A stretch of DNA of 64,000 nucleotides, taken from a phage. This document shows, in pieces, positions 5,941 to 58,009 of the stretch. The notes below the pieces were generated by a model that was not told where the DNA came from, did not search any database, and saw nothing but the letters and a program-made list of their open reading frames with translations. How positions within the stretch are numbered: the first letter of the stretch is position 1; every line of letters starts with the position of its first letter. The stretch is from the sequence record PZ445517.1; one strand, written 5' to 3'. The translations under genes were made by a program, and so were the position numbers.

Positions 5941-6141
5941 TTACCTCACATAATTTTCTTCAAGCCAATCAATAACATCCAACGCATTATCAAAAGTTGA
6001 ACCATCTACTTTGTCTTCTGTTTCATAATCAAGAACATCTAAACCTACTCTTCCATCAACAATAGGCCATAAACAAAATAGATATTTCTTTTCTTTTTCA
6101 ATCTTATCACAAAGACGATAAATCTTTTCTATGTTATTCAT
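5941..6141 (-). CDS. hypothetical protein (cd.5 position)
   Basis: 66-aa ORF. Confidence 0.4.
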   Translation of the reverse strand: MNNIEKIYRLCDKIEKEKKYLFCLWPIVDGRVGLDVLDYETEDKVDGSTFDNALDVIDWLEENYVR

Positions 6142-6330
6142 AAGTTTTCCATGGTAAAGGCAGTTTAGTTTTCTTTACTGTTAGTTCAGCATCAGGATTC
6201 TTTTCTCTTAATTTAAGGCATTCCTCCCAAGCTCTGATTTCACTAGTGAATATACAAAATTGCCCATTACTAGTACCAACTAAACCACTATTTACAATAA
6301 CAATAGCCCAAGTTTCATGATGCCAAGCCA

Positions 6331-6331
<1 letters not shown>
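6134..6331 (-). CDS. hypothetical protein
   Basis: 65-aa ORF abutting pseT stop. Confidence 0.4.
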
Positions 6332-7552
<1,221 letters not shown>

Positions 7553-8987: not shown

Positions 8988-10575
<1,588 letters not shown>

Positions 10576-10602: not shown

Positions 10603-11781
10603 TTAAAAATATTTTTTAAAACTCATCATAACTTTATCATCAACATCATTATCAATCTGTGCTACAAGGTAAGATGACAGTTCTACTTCTTGCGGCGCGG
10701 ATTGAACATTATCAGAATTAAGGTATTCACGAATCCAAGGATATGGATGTTTAACCGGAGCATCGGTAATTGGGCATGGAAGACCGCACTGTTTCATACG
10801 AGATACAGTTAAGTAATCAATAAAGCTCCACATGCTATTTGTATTTAATCCAGGAACATCACCATCTTTAAATAAATGAACTGCCCAATCTTTTTCTTGG
10901 CGGTTAACTTCCATGAAAATATCAACTGCTTCTTGTTCACACTCTTGGGCAATTTTAACCCATTCATCACCATCAATGCCAAGTTGAAGTTGACGAATAA
11001 TATATTGTGTACCTTTAAGATGAAGTTGCTCATCACGCGCAATGAACTTCATAATCTTGGCATTACCTTCCATAATTTCCATGTTCTTATGGAAGTTAAA
11101 GGTACAGGCGAAAGATACGTAAAAACGAATAGCTTCCAATGCATTGATTACATGAAGGCAAAGATAAAGAGATTTCATTAGTGCTCGTTTAGCTTCGGCT
11201 TCTTGTTTAATAGCTCGATTTAAACGAAAATCAGCATCAGGAGATTCTTTAGCTAGTTCTACAAATTCTTTAGCATTTTCCCATTCACGGGTCTTCTTAA
11301 GAACATCATCGTAATAGCGACCAATGGACTCAGCGCGTTTCATAATATCTTCATCTAATACAATCTCATCAAATACCTTTGACGGATCAGTATAAAGATT
11401 TCGCATGATATGGGTATATGAACGGCTGTGAATAGTTTCACTAAAAGTCCATGTAGCAACCCATGTATCAAGACTTGGGTCTGAAATTAACGACATAAGT
11501 ACAGCAGACGGTGCACGACCCTGAATGCTATCTAGAAGTGATTGATACTTCAGGTTATTAGTAAAAATATCTTGCTGATACTGAGGAAGCTTGTTAAATT
11601 GTGCAGCATCCATCATTAAGTTTACTTCTTCAGGACGCCAGAAAAATGATAATTGCTTTTCGGTTAAATCTTCAAAAACTTTATGGCGTTGAATATCATA
11701 ACGCGCAATACCAAGACCTGAACCGAAGAACATAGGTTCTTTTAAAACATCAACTGGATTTGTATTAAAAACTGTAGACAT
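10603..11781 (-). CDS. nrdB: ribonucleotide reductase small subunit (class Ia), continuous
   Basis: 392-aa diiron-tyrosyl radical protein; single continuous ORF with no intron interruption. Confidence 0.9.
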   Translation of the reverse strand: MSTVFNTNPVDVLKEPMFFGSGLGIARYDIQRHKVFEDLTEKQLSFFWRPEEVNLMMDAAQFNKLPQYQQDIFTNNLKYQSLLDSIQGRAPSAVLMSLISDPSLDTWVATWTFSETIHSRSYTHIMRNLYTDPSKVFDEIVLDEDIMKRAESIGRYYDDVLKKTREWENAKEFVELAKESPDADFRLNRAIKQEAEAKRALMKSLYLCLHVINALEAIRFYVSFACTFNFHKNMEIMEGNAKIMKFIARDEQLHLKGTQYIIRQLQLGIDGDEWVKIAQECEQEAVDIFMEVNRQEKDWAVHLFKDGDVPGLNTNSMWSFIDYLTVSRMKQCGLPCPITDAPVKHPYPWIREYLNSDNVQSAPQEVELSSYLVAQIDNDVDDKVMMSFKKYF

Positions 11782-11816
11782 ATTATTCTCGCTTATTATA
11801 GGTTTAAATTATTTAA

Positions 11817-12608
11817 TCACATATTGTGTATAAGCACTTCAGTCTGAAATGATGCACCTTTCTTTTGCTTCCTATACATGGTTTCAAAATATTCAATTTT
11901 GAAATTATTAGAAAGGGCCCAATCTTTTAAAATATAATTATTAATATCGTCTGATAGATTATTAGTGATAATAAATTTAGACTTCGATTGTTTAATTTTG
12001 TCTAATAATTCTAATTCATCCTTTTCTTCCCAGCCTGAATATTTAAATTTAGTAGAAAGATACGGCGGGTCAATGAATAAATTTTTGTTTTCAAAATCCA
12101 AATCTCTGAATGATTTATTACTAAATGTAAATCTGTGCTGTCTATTTTTAAATTCAGAAAATTTATCCTGTTGAGACTTATTAAAAGAAGTTCTGGAATA
12201 CTTGGCTCTATTGGCGAAAGCCGCGTTATAATTCCCATTACTAGAAAATCGGATTAACGAACTGAATGAAAATAAATGTAGAACATAAAGATATAGTCCG
12301 TTTTTGGTTTTATCGTATTCTTTTGACAGATTATAAAAAGGTGCTGAATCTTTGTCATTCAAATTAAAGTCTTCAATAATTTGAACTATATCATTAATTG
12401 AAGATGATTTCATCTTGTTATACATATCTATAAGAGGAGTATTAATATCATTACATATAACATCTCTCTGACAATTCATAGAAAATCCAAGACCACCACA
12501 AAAAGCGTCCAAAACAGGCTTATCGTCAAAGCGGTTTGAAAATTGTCTAATAAATGGCATATACTTATGTTTTGCACCTGGATATGTTATGGCAGGTAGG
12601 TCTTTCAT
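11817..12608 (-). CDS. Dam-family (D12-class) N6-adenine DNA methyltransferase-like protein
   Basis: 263 aa with YPGAKHK, FCGGLG (AdoMet motif I) and FIDPPY (motif IV) in Dam-like order; visibly AT-rich, N/K/S/F-rich coding; sits between nrdA and nrdB. Confidence 0.7.
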   Translation of the reverse strand: MKDLPAITYPGAKHKYMPFIRQFSNRFDDKPVLDAFCGGLGFSMNCQRDVICNDINTPLIDMYNKMKSSSINDIVQIIEDFNLNDKDSAPFYNLSKEYDKTKNGLYLYVLHLFSFSSLIRFSSNGNYNAAFANRAKYSRTSFNKSQQDKFSEFKNRQHRFTFSNKSFRDLDFENKNLFIDPPYLSTKFKYSGWEEKDELELLDKIKQSKSKFIITNNLSDDINNYILKDWALSNNFKIEYFETMYRKQKKGASFQTEVLIHNM

Positions 12609-12651
12609 TTTATTTCTCGTTGTTAGTGACTCGTCCGTGAGTCAAATTATA

Positions 12652-14916
12652 TCATAATTTACAGGATGAACAATCTTCAGCTTTTGGAGTTTCTATTTCA
12701 TAATCATCAGTACCAGAACCATCGCGGGTATTATGATAATAGAAATTTTTTCCGCCAAAATACCAAAAATACAAAAGGTCATCAATCATTACAGACATTG
12801 GAACCTTTCCTTTTGGAAAAATCTGCGGGTCATAATATGTATTCGCTGAAGCTGATTGACATACCCATTTAAGCATAATAGCTACCTGCGTAAGATAAGG
12901 TTTATTACCTTTCTTAGCTAATTTCCATGTATAATCATAGAGGTCTATGTTATGTTCAATATTGGGCACGACTTGATTAAAGGAACCCTCTTTTGATTCT
13001 TTAACCGAGACTGGTCCACGTGGAGGCTCGATACCGTTTGTACTGTTAGAAACTTGGGAAGATGACTCACATGGCATAAGTGCTGATAATGTGCTATTAC
13101 GGATGCCAAAGAGCTTAAGGTCTTCCCGCAGCGCCGACCAGTCACAAACGTATTTTGGAGCTGCGATTTGGTCAATCTTTTTATTGTACCAGTCGATAGG
13201 TAATTCGCCTCGAGACCAACGAGTGTCTGAATAATATTCGCAAGGTCCTTTTTCTTTGGCGAGCTTAATGGATGCTTTAATGAGTCCATACTGTAATCTC
13301 TCAAATAGTTCATGTGTTAAATCGTTAGCATCTTCATAAGAAGCAAAGTTACTTGCCAGCCAAGCTGCATAGTTAGTAACACCTACGCCAAGGTTTCGAC
13401 GCTTTTTAGCTTTTTCTGCTTCAGGAACTGGATATCCTTGGTAATCCAAAAGATTATCAAGAGCGCGAACTTGAACTTCTGCTAATTCATTAATTTTATC
13501 TTGGTCTTGCCAATCGAAGTTATCCAACACAAATGCAGATAACGTGCACAATCCAATTTCAGCATCAGGACTATTCACATCATTTGTTGGAATAGCAATT
13601 TCACAACACAAGTTACTCTGACGAATAGGTGCCTTTTCACGAATAAACGGAGTATAGTTATTCGTATTATCAATGAACTGTACATAAATCCTTGCTGTTC
13701 CTGATCGTTCAGTCATGAGCAATTCAAACAGTTCACGGGCTTTAATACGCTTTTTACGAATATTAGGGTCTTTTTCTGCAGCTTCGTACAATTCACGGAA
13801 TCGGTCTTGGTCTTTAAAATAAGAATAATAAAGTTCGCCACCCATTTCATGCGGACTAAACAAAGTAATGTAGTCGTTCTTTCCAAAACGTTCCATCATT
13901 AGGTCATTCAGCTGAACACCATAATCCATATGACGGATACGGTTTTCTTCTACACCTTTGTTATTTTTCAAAACGAGAAGATTTTCAACTTCCAAATGCC
14001 AAATAGGATAATAAGCAGTAGCAGCGCCGCCACGAATTCCGCCCTGTGAACATGATTTAACAGCAGTCTGAAAATGTTTCCAAAAAGGAATAACACCAGT
14101 ATGACGCACTTCACCTGTGCCAATCTTAGAACCTTCAGCACGAATCATACCAACGTTAATGCCGATTCCAGCTCGTTTAGAAATATACTCAACAATTGAA
14201 GCAGAAGCCTTATTGATAGACTTCAGCGAATCGCCTGCCTCAATAACAACGCATGAACTAAACTGCCGAGTTGGAGTACGACAACCAGCCATAATAGGAG
14301 TTGGCAATGAAATCTGTCGAGTAGATACTGCTTCATAAAAACGAATAACATGTTTTAATCTGTCAACAGGTTCATCTTGATGCAATGCCATTCCAATAGT
14401 CATAAATGCAAACTGTGGAGTTTCATAAATTTGACCAGTGGTTTTATCTTTAACTAGATATTTTTCTTTTAATTGCATCGCTCCGGAATAAGTAAATTCC
14501 ATATCCCGCTCATGCTTAATTTTTGATTCTAAAAATGTAATTTCTTCTGCTGAATATTTTGACAACAGTTCAGGGTCGTATTTACCTTCATTTACACAGT
14601 AAGAAATATGGTCAATAAATGAACGGGGCTCATACTGCCCGTAAACATGCTTACGAAGAGCAAACATTAAACAGCGTGCAGCTACATATTGATAATCAGG
14701 CTCTTCAACTGAAATAGAATTCGCAGCAGCCTTAATGACAATAGTCTGAATGTCATCAGTTGTCATTCCATCACGGAGATATGATTTAATATTTTCATAT
14801 AATTCATAAGGATCTACAGATGTTCCTTCAGCTGCCCAAGATAAAACTTTAATAATTTTTTGCGGGTCAAAGCTTTGAGAAACACCACTACTTTTGATAA
14901 CATTAATTAATTGCAT
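12652..14916 (-). CDS. nrdA: ribonucleotide reductase large subunit (class Ia)
   Basis: 754 aa with ATP-cone N-terminus, catalytic motifs and C-terminal Cys pair; matches T4 NrdA. Confidence 0.95.
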   Translation of the reverse strand: MQLINVIKSSGVSQSFDPQKIIKVLSWAAEGTSVDPYELYENIKSYLRDGMTTDDIQTIVIKAAANSISVEEPDYQYVAARCLMFALRKHVYGQYEPRSFIDHISYCVNEGKYDPELLSKYSAEEITFLESKIKHERDMEFTYSGAMQLKEKYLVKDKTTGQIYETPQFAFMTIGMALHQDEPVDRLKHVIRFYEAVSTRQISLPTPIMAGCRTPTRQFSSCVVIEAGDSLKSINKASASIVEYISKRAGIGINVGMIRAEGSKIGTGEVRHTGVIPFWKHFQTAVKSCSQGGIRGGAATAYYPIWHLEVENLLVLKNNKGVEENRIRHMDYGVQLNDLMMERFGKNDYITLFSPHEMGGELYYSYFKDQDRFRELYEAAEKDPNIRKKRIKARELFELLMTERSGTARIYVQFIDNTNNYTPFIREKAPIRQSNLCCEIAIPTNDVNSPDAEIGLCTLSAFVLDNFDWQDQDKINELAEVQVRALDNLLDYQGYPVPEAEKAKKRRNLGVGVTNYAAWLASNFASYEDANDLTHELFERLQYGLIKASIKLAKEKGPCEYYSDTRWSRGELPIDWYNKKIDQIAAPKYVCDWSALREDLKLFGIRNSTLSALMPCESSSQVSNSTNGIEPPRGPVSVKESKEGSFNQVVPNIEHNIDLYDYTWKLAKKGNKPYLTQVAIMLKWVCQSASANTYYDPQIFPKGKVPMSVMIDDLLYFWYFGGKNFYYHNTRDGSGTDDYEIETPKAEDCSSCKL

Positions 14917-15233
14917 AAGTCCTCAACTTGAAAATCGTCTTTAAACAATCGGTTAACTATATGAGCTATTATATCACCATGACACGGCTTTGGTTTACAT
15001 GTGCATCCTAGCCTCATTCCACGTAAAGGCTCTAAATGTGCTTTAGTTATTTCTCCGGATTTAATTCGACGTATAAAATCTTTTTTGAATAATTCAATGG
15101 CAGCCTCCCGGCTGCCAGCATCTTTACCGACGTAATTTCCCCAAAATGTACCACGGTGAATATTAACATCAAAGTCGGATTTATATTTATTCATTACCTG
15201 GCATAGACGGCCCGCGCGGTGATAATTCGTCAT
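14907..15233 (-). CDS. hypothetical protein with C-x-C...C-H motif
   Basis: 108-aa ORF; [15 protein letters not shown] motif suggests metal binding; between nrdA and td. Confidence 0.4.
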
Positions 15234-15462
15234 ATTGTTTTTCCGTTAAAACAGTAATATCATAGTAACAATCTGAAGAAGTTTTAACTGTAGAAATTTT
15301 ATTATCAAAATACTCACGAGTCATTTTATGAGTATAATATTTTTTGCCATAAATGATAATAGGCTGATTTGGTCCTGGAACTTCTAACTCACTTGGGTTA
15401 GGAAGTGTAAAAAGAACTACACCAGAAGTATCTTTAAATCGTAAAATCATATATCCTCGCAA
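15187..15462 (-). CDS. hypothetical protein
   Basis: 91-aa ORF between td and nrdA; start approximate. Confidence 0.35.
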
Positions 15463-15468
15463 TTAAAA

Positions 15469-16329
15469 TTACACCGCCATTTTTCCTTTCAAGACACCAT
15501 GGGACTGATAATCTTTAAGAACGAAATCTCGCGATGTCATATATTCAGTTAACCAATACATTTGAGTTTCAGTATCGCATTGGCTGAATCCATTAGGCCA
15601 ATTAATACTGAGTTTGCACAGGTCCATAGGAGTTCTATTTAATATCTCTTTGCATTGCTCAATATGGTTAGAATAAATGTGTGTATTGCCACCCGAAAAT
15701 ACCAAATCGCCTGGAACTAGTTCACACATGTCAGCAACAATATGTAAGAGAGCAGCATAGCTCGCGATGTTAAATGGAAGACCGAGGAAAACATCTACCG
15801 AGCGTTGATACCATTGGAGGTCAAGGTATCCGTTACGAACATTAAACTGATAGAACATGTGACAAGGCGGTAATGCCATTTGCTTGAGTTCAGCTGGATT
15901 CCACGCCGACACAATTTGTCGCCTATCGTTTGGAAATGTTTTAATACGATTAACAACTTCTACAATTTGGTCTACACCGCCAAAATCACGCCATTGTTTT
16001 CCGTAAATTGGACCAAGTTCACCACTATGATAACCTAGGTCTTTGGCCTGATTTTCGTAGTTTTCATCCCAAATCGTTTTTCCAGCAATTAAGGATCCAT
16101 GAGTACGTTTACGTAGATCATTTACGTTAGTACTTCCTGATAAGAACCACAATAACTCAGAAATACACGCATTCCAGGCGAGCTTCTTAGTTGTTACTGC
16201 AGGAAAACCTTTACTTAAATCCCAGCGTAATTTAGTACCGAACAAAGCAATTGTTCCTGTGCCCGTTCGGTCATCGGTTTCATAGCCATTTTCAAAAATG
16301 TCTTTAATTAAATCTTGGTATTGTTTCAT
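15469..16329 (-). CDS. td: thymidylate synthase, continuous (no intron)
   Basis: 286 aa, MKQYQDLIKDIFENGYETDDRTGTGT...; full-length protein in one ORF. Confidence 0.95.
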   Translation of the reverse strand: MKQYQDLIKDIFENGYETDDRTGTGTIALFGTKLRWDLSKGFPAVTTKKLAWNACISELLWFLSGSTNVNDLRKRTHGSLIAGKTIWDENYENQAKDLGYHSGELGPIYGKQWRDFGGVDQIVEVVNRIKTFPNDRRQIVSAWNPAELKQMALPPCHMFYQFNVRNGYLDLQWYQRSVDVFLGLPFNIASYAALLHIVADMCELVPGDLVFSGGNTHIYSNHIEQCKEILNRTPMDLCKLSINWPNGFSQCDTETQMYWLTEYMTSRDFVLKDYQSHGVLKGKMAV

Positions 16330-16374: not shown

Positions 16375-16722
16375 TCAATACGGTTTAGCATCAAATTTTC
16401 TCTCAATTTCAGGCGTGAAATATAATTCTTTACCGCGTTTGGAAAAGCGACCAATAATATGATAATTATTCTCATCAAACGTGATATTACCAATATCCAT
16501 AGCTTTCAACCAAATATCGATATTTCTATCCAACTTTATGTCAAAATTCCAATACGGAGAACTATTACCGAAAATACTGCAAGCGGATTCAGTAAAACAA
16601 CTACTATAAATCTTATCTTTAGGAACTACTAATTGATAGACACCTTTAATAAACTGAGGACCCTGCCATTTTGGTTGTTTCGTGTCTTTTTCTAATAGAA
16701 TAGGGTAATAATTAAAATTCAT
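16375..16722 (-). CDS. hypothetical protein inserted between frd and td
   Basis: 115-aa ORF with ATG at 16722; fills a 400-bp gap where T4 frd and td overlap (recalled); no recognisable motif. Confidence 0.45.
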   Translation of the reverse strand: MNFNYYPILLEKDTKQPKWQGPQFIKGVYQLVVPKDKIYSSCFTESACSIFGNSSPYWNFDIKLDRNIDIWLKAMDIGNITFDENNYHIIGRFSKRGKELYFTPEIERKFDAKPY

Positions 16723-16741: not shown

Positions 16742-17568
<827 letters not shown>

Positions 17569-55866: not shown

Positions 55867-56112
55867 TTAACCGCCAGTTACTTTCCACAAATCTTCGTTT
55901 GCAGCAATCCATTCAGTACGTTGATTTTCTTCATATACAGTAGTATATGCTGCTTTTTCTGAAGGGAATGTCTGGTAATGAGCGCCAGAAATTTTGTGAA
56001 CGTCAGAATAAAGAGGGAAAGCTACAGAAATTTCCTTTCCTTCAATTTTCTTATTTCCATCTAATTTCTGCTCAAACGTTTTGATATTAACATAACCGCG
56101 AGTACTAGCCAT
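55867..56112 (-). CDS. soc: small outer capsid protein Soc
   Basis: 81-aa ORF, MASTRGYVNIKTFEQKLDGNKKIEGKEISVAFPLYSDVHKISGAHYQTF...; late promoter upstream. Confidence 0.9.
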   Translation of the reverse strand: MASTRGYVNIKTFEQKLDGNKKIEGKEISVAFPLYSDVHKISGAHYQTFPSEKAAYTTVYEENQRTEWIAANEDLWKVTGG

Positions 56113-56142
56113 GTAATTCTCCTTTTATTTAAATTACATGAT

Positions 56143-56150
56143 TATTTATA
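56143..56150 (-). promoter_or_regulatory. late promoter (TATAAATA) of soc
   Basis: Exact TATAAATA on minus strand about 30 nt upstream of soc ATG. Confidence 0.6.
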
Positions 56151-56194
56151 ATAATTCTCGCGGCTTTTAAGTCGTCGTTTAAATAAACGCGCTA

Positions 56195-56713
56195 TTAATA
56201 ACCTCGGTCTTGACGAGCGAAGTTTTCAGCATTTTTCAGATAATAAAGTTTAAAGATTTCTTCAGCCGTAAGACCGAGACCTTGGAACATGTTCAGAACG
56301 AAATGAAGAATATCAATCATTTCAAATTTAATTTCCAACTGGTCTTGTGGAGACAAATCAGTAATTAGAGTTTCACGACGTTCACCATGTTGAGCTTTCC
56401 AAGGCTTCCATACAGCAGATGCATCTTTTTCGCCATTGCTCATACCGCCAAGAGAAGTCAGAAGTTCACGGAATTCATCGTCAATATAATCTTTCTGATT
56501 ACGCAGCCAATCAACAACTTCACCAGCAGTAGCCAAATCATCAGGATGACGGTTATATTCAGGTTTATCTTTAGCTAAACGAACTTGCAGAGATTTCTGC
56601 ATATCAAGCATAACTTGCAGTGGGTCTTTTTCATCACCGAGAATATCCCAGTATTCATTTTGAGCTTTATCGGCGCCTTCGATCAGTTGCGAACATTCAT
56701 TAAAGTATGCCAT
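56195..56713 (-). CDS. 56: dCTPase/dUTPase gp56
   Basis: 172 aa from ATG at 56713 (MAYFNECSQLIEG...), AAGGA RBS; MazG-like fold. Confidence 0.85.
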   Translation of the reverse strand: MAYFNECSQLIEGADKAQNEYWDILGDEKDPLQVMLDMQKSLQVRLAKDKPEYNRHPDDLATAGEVVDWLRNQKDYIDDEFRELLTSLGGMSNGEKDASAVWKPWKAQHGERRETLITDLSPQDQLEIKFEMIDILHFVLNMFQGLGLTAEEIFKLYYLKNAENFARQDRGY

Positions 56714-56980
56714 TATTTTTCCTTTCAATTCATGGATTAGTAGATTAATTATACAATAAATATATAAAGCAATAAGGAGGACATATGGTACAAAAATTAA
56801 TGGCACTTGTTAATGCCATCAAAGGTAATAAAAACGTATAGCTTTTACTATTTCTGCTATGATAGGAATTTTACTTTGGAATTTTGTTTTATCGCCAGTT
56901 GCTATTGCTCATGGCGTTAGTATTCCAGTAATTACTCTTGATACATTCGTAGATTTAGCATTTGCTTTAGTTGGGTTAAT

Positions 56981-58009
56981 TTAAATCTTAGCATATTTAG
57001 ATAACCGCATTTTAGCCATCAACCCCTGGGCAATATTATTTTTCATATATTCCATAATTTGTTCAGGGGTTGCACCTTCCTTTCTAATCATATCATTAAC
57101 ATCTTTTGATTTCCAGGGAGATTTATCCCAAAACATAACCCTTTCTCCTGCATCAACTAATTTAGTCATTCGTTTGATAGTGTCAGGGTGACGAGGTTCA
57201 TTATCTAAAACCCACACTCGTCTATCTTTAAATGGAACAACTTCTAGGTCTAATTGACCACCTGTAATAGCTATACCATTTTCAATAAAAAGTGAATCGA
57301 TGGGTCCTTCTAGAACATATACATCACCATCTTTAACTCGTTCAACACCGTAAATTTTTGTTGCTTCAGGATAAGCTTTGATGGTGATATATTTTTGGGG
57401 AGCATCTTTCTTTAATGCACGTCCTTGAAAAGACTCAGCTTTTCCATTAGCATTATAAATTGGAATAACAAGACGAGGCTCAGGTATTTCTTTTTTATAT
57501 GTTCCTGGTGCTATACTATTAACTAATTTAGGCCATTCAGTTGTAAACCAAAGATATTTCCATTTATCCTTTGGAATACAACGAGCTTTTACGTATTTTA
57601 TAATTGGATGGTCTTCCGCCAGTTTATCTAATCTAATGCATGACGGAAGAGATTTAATTATTTTCTTCTCGGATTGTTTAGGAAGTTCTTTAGGTTTTTC
57701 TACTGGACGACTTTTACCTTTTTCTTTTCTTATTTCAAAGATATACTCACGATATAAATCAGGTTCAAACTCCTTTAAATATATTCCGATTGGTGCATGA
57801 TAGTTACAGTTATAACAATGAATATTTCCTTCATTATTATCACCGTAATACCATCCACGGGCTTTATTTTGGTCGGTTTTTGAATCTCCACAAACAGGAC
57901 ATCTAAACCGTAATTTAAAAGTTGAACTATTATTTACTTGTGTGAATTTAGGTAAATGAGCTAATGCACGGTATGCAAACTCATTATCAATCCAAGGTAT
58001 TGATGACAT
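56981..58009 (-). CDS. 61: DNA primase gp61
   Basis: 342 aa with N-terminal zinc ribbon (CPVCGDS...CYNCNYH) and TOPRIM core. Confidence 0.9.
   Translation of the reverse strand: MSSIPWIDNEFAYRALAHLPKFTQVNNSSTFKLRFRCPVCGDSKTDQNKARGWYYGDNNEGNIHCYNCNYHAPIGIYLKEFEPDLYREYIFEIRKEKGKSRPVEKPKELPKQSEKKIIKSLPSCIRLDKLAEDHPIIKYVKARCIPKDKWKYLWFTTEWPKLVNSIAPGTYKKEIPEPRLVIPIYNANGKAESFQGRALKKDAPQKYITIKAYPEATKIYGVERVKDGDVYVLEGPIDSLFIENGIAITGGQLDLEVVPFKDRRVWVLDNEPRHPDTIKRMTKLVDAGERVMFWDKSPWKSKDVNDMIRKEGATPEQIMEYMKNNIAQGLMAKMRLSKYAKI

Follow-up and report, generated by a model that had tools for sequence, protein, structure and literature searches.

The gap between nrdA and nrdB of T-even phages raises the question of which gene occupies it when it is neither empty nor filled by mobE, and what such an occupant does for the phage. 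The question is addressed here for a stretch of phage DNA of 64,000 nucleotides (sequence record PZ445517.1), which was analysed as a whole and is referred to as the window. An open reading frame (ORF) of 263 amino acids lies in this gap at 11817..12608 on the minus strand; according to the ORF list it has an ATG start, and its stop codon is inside the coordinates. With a probability of about 0.72, the ORF is best explained as a functional, solitary N6-adenine DNA methyltransferase that is of the D12 (alpha) class and folds like T4 Dam. It would belong to a small enzyme sub-family known only from the nrd gap of T4-like (Straboviridae) phages, act on a GATC-like target, be read through with the nrd genes, serve as the sole Dam of the phage and have spread by recombination.

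Identity, fold and conservation of the nrd-gap gene

The sequence-only reading, made from the letters and their translations, had called the ORF a Dam-family methyltransferase with the motifs YPGAKHK, FCGGLG and FIDPPY in Dam/D12 order, and all three are present at exactly 11817..12608. In the translation, YPGAKHK corresponds to residues 9 to 15 and FIDPPY to residues 178 to 183. Motif I is followed by the recognition region, with a hairpin at residues 115 to 134, and then by motif IV, which is the order of the D12 class. The gene and its two principal motifs are as follows:

11817..12608, minus strand: predicted D12-class (T4 Dam-like) N6-adenine DNA methyltransferase coding sequence, from PF02086, phmmer, AlphaFold2/Foldseek and the substitution ratios given below
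12486..12503, minus strand: motif I, FCGGLG, the FxGxG S-adenosylmethionine-binding loop, residues 36 to 41, from translation and alignments
12060..12071, minus strand: motif IV, DPPY, catalytic and adenine-binding, residues 180 to 183, encoded by GAC CCG CCG TAT, from sequence and alignments

Both motifs are strongly conserved. In an alignment of 21 family sequences, motif I has an invariant F36 and G38 and a G39 that is retained in at least 90%, while D180, P181, P182 and Y183 of motif IV are all invariant. Among 171 aligned relatives, the T4 Dam-equivalent columns of motif I contain F in 163, G in 170 and G in 131 sequences, and the motif IV columns are conserved in 163 to 170.

The search against the Pfam profile PF02086, which represents the D12 class and by which the family assignment could be checked, gave 84.6 bits with a cut-off of 22 (E=1.2e-23) and covered profile positions 1 to 251 of 253. 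The ORF also matches PHROG 56, annotated as DNA methyltransferase, at 1e-35, and its top PADLOC model is "orphan methyltransferase". In phmmer searches, the best sequence match in the PDB is the set of T4 Dam structures, with E=6e-37 over residues 4 to 252. The AlphaFold2 model has a predicted local distance difference test score (pLDDT) of 87.7 and a predicted template modelling score of 0.87. Foldseek aligns this model best with T4 Dam, at a template modelling score (TM) of 0.82–0.88, followed by Escherichia coli Dam (EcoDam, 0.74–0.80) and DpnM (0.72), all of which are GATC enzymes; the predicted fold is thus of the Dam type. From homology, the ORF is an intact D12-class, Dam-family N6-adenine DNA methyltransferase that is not orthologous to T4 Dam. 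Some GenBank records already label the nrd-gap gene "DNA adenine methylase"; the sub-family itself is previously uncharacterised.

T4 Dam (M.EcoT4Dam; PDB 1Q0S, 1YF3, 1YFJ, 1YFL) is the closest known counterpart. In addition to the fold, the two proteins share their size (263 and 259 amino acids), the motif order and the F, S, R and R residues of the hairpin, and both are orphan enzymes of T-even phages. They are only 34% identical, which agrees with the earlier statement that the ORF is not the T2/T4 Dam sequence, and they differ in locus, T4 dam being located between genes 61 and 56. They differ further in the alanine that replaces P126 and in six additional residues after the position of R130, and the neighbour-joining tree does not place them as sisters. 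E. coli Dam and DpnM of Streptococcus pneumoniae (M1.DpnII) share the D12 class and the architecture, with TM scores of 0.72–0.80. Their sequence similarity to the ORF is, however, marginal (E of about 1e-5, residues 32 to 185 only), and the window protein fails the model for EcoDam equivalents and lacks the proline P134.

Selection was assessed by the ratio of nonsynonymous to synonymous substitution rates (dN/dS). Ten pairwise comparisons with homologues gave ratios of 0.05–0.18 at a synonymous divergence of 0.28 to more than 1, which shows purifying selection on the predicted methylase. The recognition region, with a dN/dS of 0.09–0.20, shows no evidence of diversifying selection. Every allele retains intact motifs I and IV, and the length is constant at 263 to 264 amino acids from a conserved MK start across three genera.

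By analogy with its family, the FCGGLG loop would bind S-adenosylmethionine and the β-hairpin of residues 115 to 134 would read the target from the major groove. The target adenine would then swing out into the DPPY pocket, where it would receive a methyl group at N6. If the gene is read through with nrdA and nrdB in the pre-replicative transcription unit for nucleotide metabolism, the newly made phage DNA would be methylated owing to this early read-through. Such methylation may benefit the phage through anti-restriction or epigenetic marking, the role that had been suggested from the sequence.

The nrd locus and the vacant dam position

The ORF had been placed between nrdA and nrdB, and both flanks are identified by Pfam domains and lie on the same strand as the ORF. 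The locus is composed of the following parts:

10603..11781, minus strand: nrdB, the downstream flank, uninterrupted with 392 amino acids, from Pfam Ribonuc_red_sm and the ORF list
11782..11816, minus strand: 35-nt spacer from the methylase stop to the nrdB start, a part of the cassette that supplies the ribosome-binding region of nrdB, from alignment
12609..12651, minus strand: 43-nt spacer from the nrdA stop to the methylase start, from sequence, alignment and RNA folding
12652..14916, minus strand: nrdA, flanking upstream and probably the origin of read-through transcription, from Pfam ATP-cone, Ribonuc_red_lgN and Ribonuc_red_lgC

In the T4 reference (NC_000866), mobE and nrdB.1 are found between nrdA and nrdB, as the sequence-only reading had stated for mobE. 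The absence of a partner nuclease also holds, as the methylase gene abuts nrdA and nrdB directly, and a nearby GIY-YIG gene (10165..10575) occupies the position of denA (endonuclease II) in T4. A cognate endonuclease gene, as expected next to a methylase of a Type II restriction–modification system, does not adjoin the ORF. The methylase and the T4 mobE cassette have in common the slot and their presence in only some T-even phages. However, they share no sequence similarity and the methylase has no nuclease domain. Furthermore, mobE spreads by target cleavage, whereas the methylase cassette shows signs of recombinational exchange only.

No terminator-like site is present in 11400-13100. Together with the short spacers of 43 and 35 nt on either side, this makes read-through with nrdA and nrdB most likely, and co-transcription of nrdA, the methylase gene and nrdB before replication is the most economical reading of the locus. 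Neither a T4 late promoter (TATAAATA) nor a full MotA box was found in 11701-15300. Sigma-70-like matches number 14, compared with 8.4 ± 2.3 in shuffled sequences, which is unconvincing in AT-rich DNA. A GAG element resembling a Shine-Dalgarno sequence lies 9 nt upstream of the methylase ATG. After the nrdA stop, a stem-loop at 12627-12644 on the minus strand has a 6-bp stem with the arms GACUCA and UGAGUC (-7.5 kcal/mol, z=-2.1) and no T-run. The stem-loop is conserved whether the gap is empty or holds the methylase, and the more distant fDHCT2 also has it, with loop changes. The 35-nt downstream spacer has no significant structure, and no Rfam family scored above threshold, a match to the L20 leader being at chance level alone.

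The borders of the cassette are defined by alignment to phages with an empty gap. On the left, identity to teqskov extends through GAGTCACTA and ends near 12624, just past the conserved stem-loop, beyond which the sequences diverge. The right junction is the second codon of nrdB, which is TCT in carriers and AGC or AGT elsewhere. The 35-nt spacer is common to the three methylase phages aligned and unlike the nrdB leader of empty-gap and mobE phages. Neither a target duplication nor a nuclease or repeat was detected at the junctions in the alignment to the empty-gap phage.

The place at which T4 carries dam is vacant in the window:

56195..56713: gene 56 (dCTPase), from the window ORFs
56714..56980, minus strand: empty canonical dam slot, a 267-nt spacer from gene 61 to gene 56, from the window ORFs and the T4 order
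56981..58009: gene 61 (primase), from the window ORFs

The T4 order is 61-dam-56-segF-soc. In the corresponding region of the window (55867-58009), soc follows straight after gene 56, and segF is absent as well. No second Dam-like sequence was found anywhere in the window in a tblastn search with the ORF (E≤10). Escherichia phage T4_ev240 (LR597657.1, Tequatrovirus) matches the window at 100% identity in each of three stretches, namely the ORF, its flanks and the 61-56 junction, and the window coordinates fit a circular permutation of this record. T4_ev240 has a single Dam-like place genome-wide; a second Dam of the T4 type would show, because the query picks up T4 Dam at about 1e-22. The empty slot, the lack of a paralogue in the window and the single place in T4_ev240 together establish that the nrd-gap methylase is the sole Dam-family gene of the phage and not an extra one. 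With its locus between nrdA and nrdB, an empty 61-56 interval and the low identity to T4 Dam, the gene is no orthologue of T4/T2 dam, and the phage belongs among the dam-less T-even phages. Uninterrupted dam-less 61-56 junctions were seen in 25 of 30 sampled full-length matches.

Mutual exclusion with canonical dam was considered and rejected as a rule. Phage vB_Eco_BGP (BGP), alone among the records seen, has both genes, so the two are not strictly alternatives, and junctions without dam are common in any case. The places concerned in its record (OZ035849.1) are 5986-6777 of stretch L002 and 1964-2743 of stretch L010. Its genome also contains an extra 186-aa ORF between gene 61 and dam, and its nrdB is split by a homing endonuclease of the intron type. 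At the vacant slot of the window, the listed 203-aa GTG ORF (56195..56806) is gene 56 artificially extended at its N-terminus; translation probably begins at the Met at 56713.

Distribution and exchange of the cassette

The nrd-gap methylase is rare. It was found in 8 of 640 T-even-like phage records matching the nrdA and nrdB flanks, and its universal presence at this locus, which would have spoken against an acquired gene, is thereby excluded. Most sampled flank-matching records have an empty gap (a 651-bp span with a spacer of about 51 nt), and others contain mobE. Of 50,697 phage records, only nine contain a homologue with an identity of 75% or more. Five of these nine carriers are nearly identical E. 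coli Tequatroviruses; the others are vB_Eco_BGP (80% identity to the window), the Salmonella Gelderlandvirus CF-SP2 (79.5%), fDHCT2 (78%) and the Klebsiella Marfavirus PhiKpNIH-6 (75.5%). Every copy found, including those on the metagenome contigs for the proteins P0003 and P0004, sits in the nrdA-nrdB gap; in PhiKpNIH-6 it follows directly after nrdA at the record end. The linear record of PhiKpNIH-6 (MN395284.1; stretch L008 4001-4624) begins inside the methylase gene. The gene is thus split over the record ends and annotated as a misc_feature only, and automated surveys would therefore miss this copy.

Identity of the methylase does not follow that of its flanks. The window and BGP, both Tequatrovirus, share 80% of the methylase and 95.8% of nrdA, whereas BGP and CF-SP2, from different genera, share 91.5% of the methylase and 79% of nrdA. 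This disagreement shows that the cassette has been exchanged among phage genera, at least three of them. Homologous recombination via the conserved nrdA and nrdB flanks is the simplest route, by which the cassette would move from one genus to another. The term "horizontally acquired", which the sequence-only reading had used, is accordingly apt with regard to lateral mobility, as allele and flank identity are discordant. It does not hold with regard to a bacterial donor, as none was found in the E. coli genomes, plasmids and protein representatives searched, and the exchange takes place within the T4-like gene pool.

Recognition hairpin, specificity and competing explanations

The specificity of Dam enzymes is expected to depend on the hairpin between the two motifs, which was predicted for the ORF by alignment:

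12207..12266, minus strand: predicted DNA-reading β-hairpin, residues 115 to 134, FSSLIRFSSNGNYNAAFANR, from gap-free alignment to T4 Dam residues 111-130

In this alignment, F115, S116, R120 and R134 pair with F111, S112, R116 and R130 of T4 Dam, four identical residues that presumably read GATC in the T4 enzyme. L118 corresponds to M114 of T4 Dam and matches L122 of EcoDam. As most reading residues are kept, GATC or a close sequence is the best prediction, and the predicted target is most likely GATC or a near relative, possibly with relaxed specificity. Of the corresponding EcoDam residues, Y119 intercalates, R124 recognises the guanine at base pair four, and the pair next to it is contacted by L122 and P134 (PMC4417163). 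The window protein has equivalents of R124 and L122 (PMC4417163). Of the features expected in a Dam-family hairpin, the guanine-reading arginine (R120) and the intercalating aromatic residue (F115) are present, and the proline at the adjacent pair is absent (A130).

Two allele types differ in the predicted hairpin, namely type A, FSSLIRFSSNGNYNAAF, in the window and in similar form in PhiKpNIH-6, and type B, FSSMLKFSKDDKYIASF, in BGP, fDHCT2 and CF-SP2. The nrd-gap copy of BGP is thus a type B allele. Between the window and type B alleles, the C-terminal third (approximately nt 510-690) is 85-95% identical and the N-terminal two-thirds are 62-87% identical. A separate observation concerns GATC itself, which is the most under-represented of the 256 tetranucleotides window-wide: it occurs 84 times, whereas a second-order Markov model predicts 215 (ratio 0.39). 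TCGA follows with a ratio of 0.58. This depletion shows that GATC matters to the lineage, yet it is uninformative on the specificity of the methylase.

Several observations weigh against a solitary, GATC-directed Dam. The ORF scores 93.6 with TIGR00571, below the curated Dam-family cut-off of 114.85, and 35.6 with the EcoDam equivalog NF008152, below the cut-off of 441. Residue A130 stands where T4 Dam (P126) and EcoDam (P134) have proline. The hairpin is followed by a six-residue insertion relative to T4 Dam, AKYSRT (residues 135 to 140), which contains the sole segment of the AlphaFold2 model with a pLDDT below 50 (residues 135 to 137). Due to A130 and this insertion, the specificity could differ from GATC. 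In addition, the type B alleles BGP, fDHCT2 and CF-SP2 have lysine where the guanine-reading arginine is expected. Canonical dam is often absent from the sampled T-even-like records, so that no causal link need exist between the nrd-gap gene and the lack of dam in the window. Finally, the presence of both genes in vB_Eco_BGP counts against simple redundancy or replacement and is compatible with different specificities or a transient state.

Part of this evidence could also be accounted for by a methylase with relaxed or altered specificity, the natural counterpart of the hypermethylating dam-h mutants of T2/T4 Dam obtained in the laboratory; its broader methylation (e.g., of the GAY type) would protect against more restriction systems. 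The dam-h site is taken to be P126. The mutation, reportedly described by Miner, Schlagman and Hattman in 1989, is said to be P126S and to relax the specificity to non-canonical sites; it is also said that dam-h was first selected because it made non-glucosylated T2 resistant to P1 restriction. At the equivalent position, no member of the nrd-gap family has proline: the type B alleles and P0002 carry Ser, and PhiKpNIH-6 shares Ala with the window. However, the nrd-gap alleles are natural, and their protein has only 34% identity with T4 Dam. The insertion after the hairpin, the replacement of Arg by Lys in type B and the contact of EcoDam P134 with the pair beside the guanine read by R124 (PMC4417163) all point in the same direction, and the retention of both genes in BGP would be expected if they are non-redundant. 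Nevertheless, natural T4 Dam-like proteins also vary in the P126 column (P 89, S 31, A 21 and T 17, n=171). The presence of Ala or Ser by itself thus says little in favour of relaxed specificity, and the other contact residues are conserved. A relaxed enzyme is rather improbable, and the dam-h parallel is a lead, not evidence. More doubtful is the extended proposal that the Arg/Ala and Lys/Ser allele groups are natural relaxed or shifted enzymes with different target ranges, swapped via the nrd flanks as interchangeable anti-restriction modules, which would explain why BGP retains both genes. An Ala at the P126 equivalent and a lengthened segment after the hairpin also occur in the predicted Dam of Alcaligenes phage Afa-NA1 (PV550095.1), likewise uncharacterised. 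At 40% identity over 261 residues, this protein comes closer than any other in the phage collection outside the nrd-gap family. In contrast to the nrd-gap gene, it is encoded in an unrelated 78-kb phage and adjoins topoisomerase genes instead of nrd genes.

The remaining alternatives concern the origin and the function of the gene. A recent acquisition from a bacterial host or a restriction–modification system would be in line with the rarity of the gene among T-even phages and with its composition, which the sequence-only reading had described as markedly more AT-rich than that of the flanking nrd genes. At 29.2%, the GC content is indeed the third lowest of the 65 ORFs of at least 100 amino acids (window mean 35.6%, z=-1.8). 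As a sign of foreign origin the composition fails, since the GC content at third codon positions is average, at 25.0% compared with a window mean of 25.2%. The AT-richness therefore resides in codon positions 1 and 2 of a protein rich in N, K, S and F, and not in synonymous sites. No match to the ORF was found in 5,426 complete E. coli genomes, and the best match in the plasmid search is 29% identical. Among 1.84 billion representatives at 50% identity, only its own cluster falls below E=1e-30, the next match being 34% identical. A word-indexed search of 5.8 billion proteins returned four close clusters only, and a pattern scan of IMG/VR, a method that reaches close relatives only, gave no confirmed relative. 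All homologues with at least 75% identity are from T4-like phages at the same locus, and no nuclease gene adjoins the ORF in the window. The average third-position composition and the lack of a bacterial or plasmid donor disfavour a recent bacterial import, which is very unlikely and largely refuted, and the evidence favours an old resident of the T4-like gene pool. In a neighbour-joining tree, the nrd-gap family forms a long, isolated branch of its own, which joins T4 Dam only in a clade of 52 of the 57 sequences. A sister relationship to T4 Dam is not claimed, as this tree leaves the long branch unplaced. Least probable is a decaying or functionless passenger in a recombination-prone slot. 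The slot is polymorphic (empty, mobE or methylase) and its methylase carriers are few, and even T4 Dam has an in vivo role described as unclear, though it blocks restriction in vitro (PMC12707154). Against such decay stand the low dN/dS ratios over the synonymous divergences given above, the catalytic motifs intact in every allele, the constant length and the confident structure model.

As a functional, solitary methylase, the ORF would represent a second, locus-specific lineage of Dam-like orphan enzymes in T-even phages, which can replace or co-exist with classical dam. It is also a third occupant of the well-studied polymorphic nrd slot, besides the empty state and mobE. Natural phages with the nrd-gap gene only, dam only, both or neither provide a ready comparison set for adenine methylation in hydroxymethylcytosine-modified phages. 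Among them are T4_ev240 and 236Ecol005PP with the nrd-gap gene only, T4 with dam only, BGP with both, and RB32 and ime09 with neither at the two loci compared. The Ala or Ser that occurs naturally at the dam-h position is a concrete specificity lead. The practical impact is modest.

Other features of the window concern mobile elements. Both nrdB (10603-11781, 392 aa) and td (15469-16329, 286 aa) are uninterrupted, while in T4 both contain group I introns, with I-TevIII and I-TevI. With mobE and segF absent too, at least four mobile nuclease elements of T4 are missing from the examined parts of the window. An ORF of 115 amino acids without a Pfam match (16375-16722, minus strand) is located between frd (16742..17323) and td, unlike in the T4 reference, where frd and td overlap directly. 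It is annotated, as "Phage protein" only, in T4_ev240 and BGP, and appears to be a further optional insert among the nucleotide-metabolism genes.

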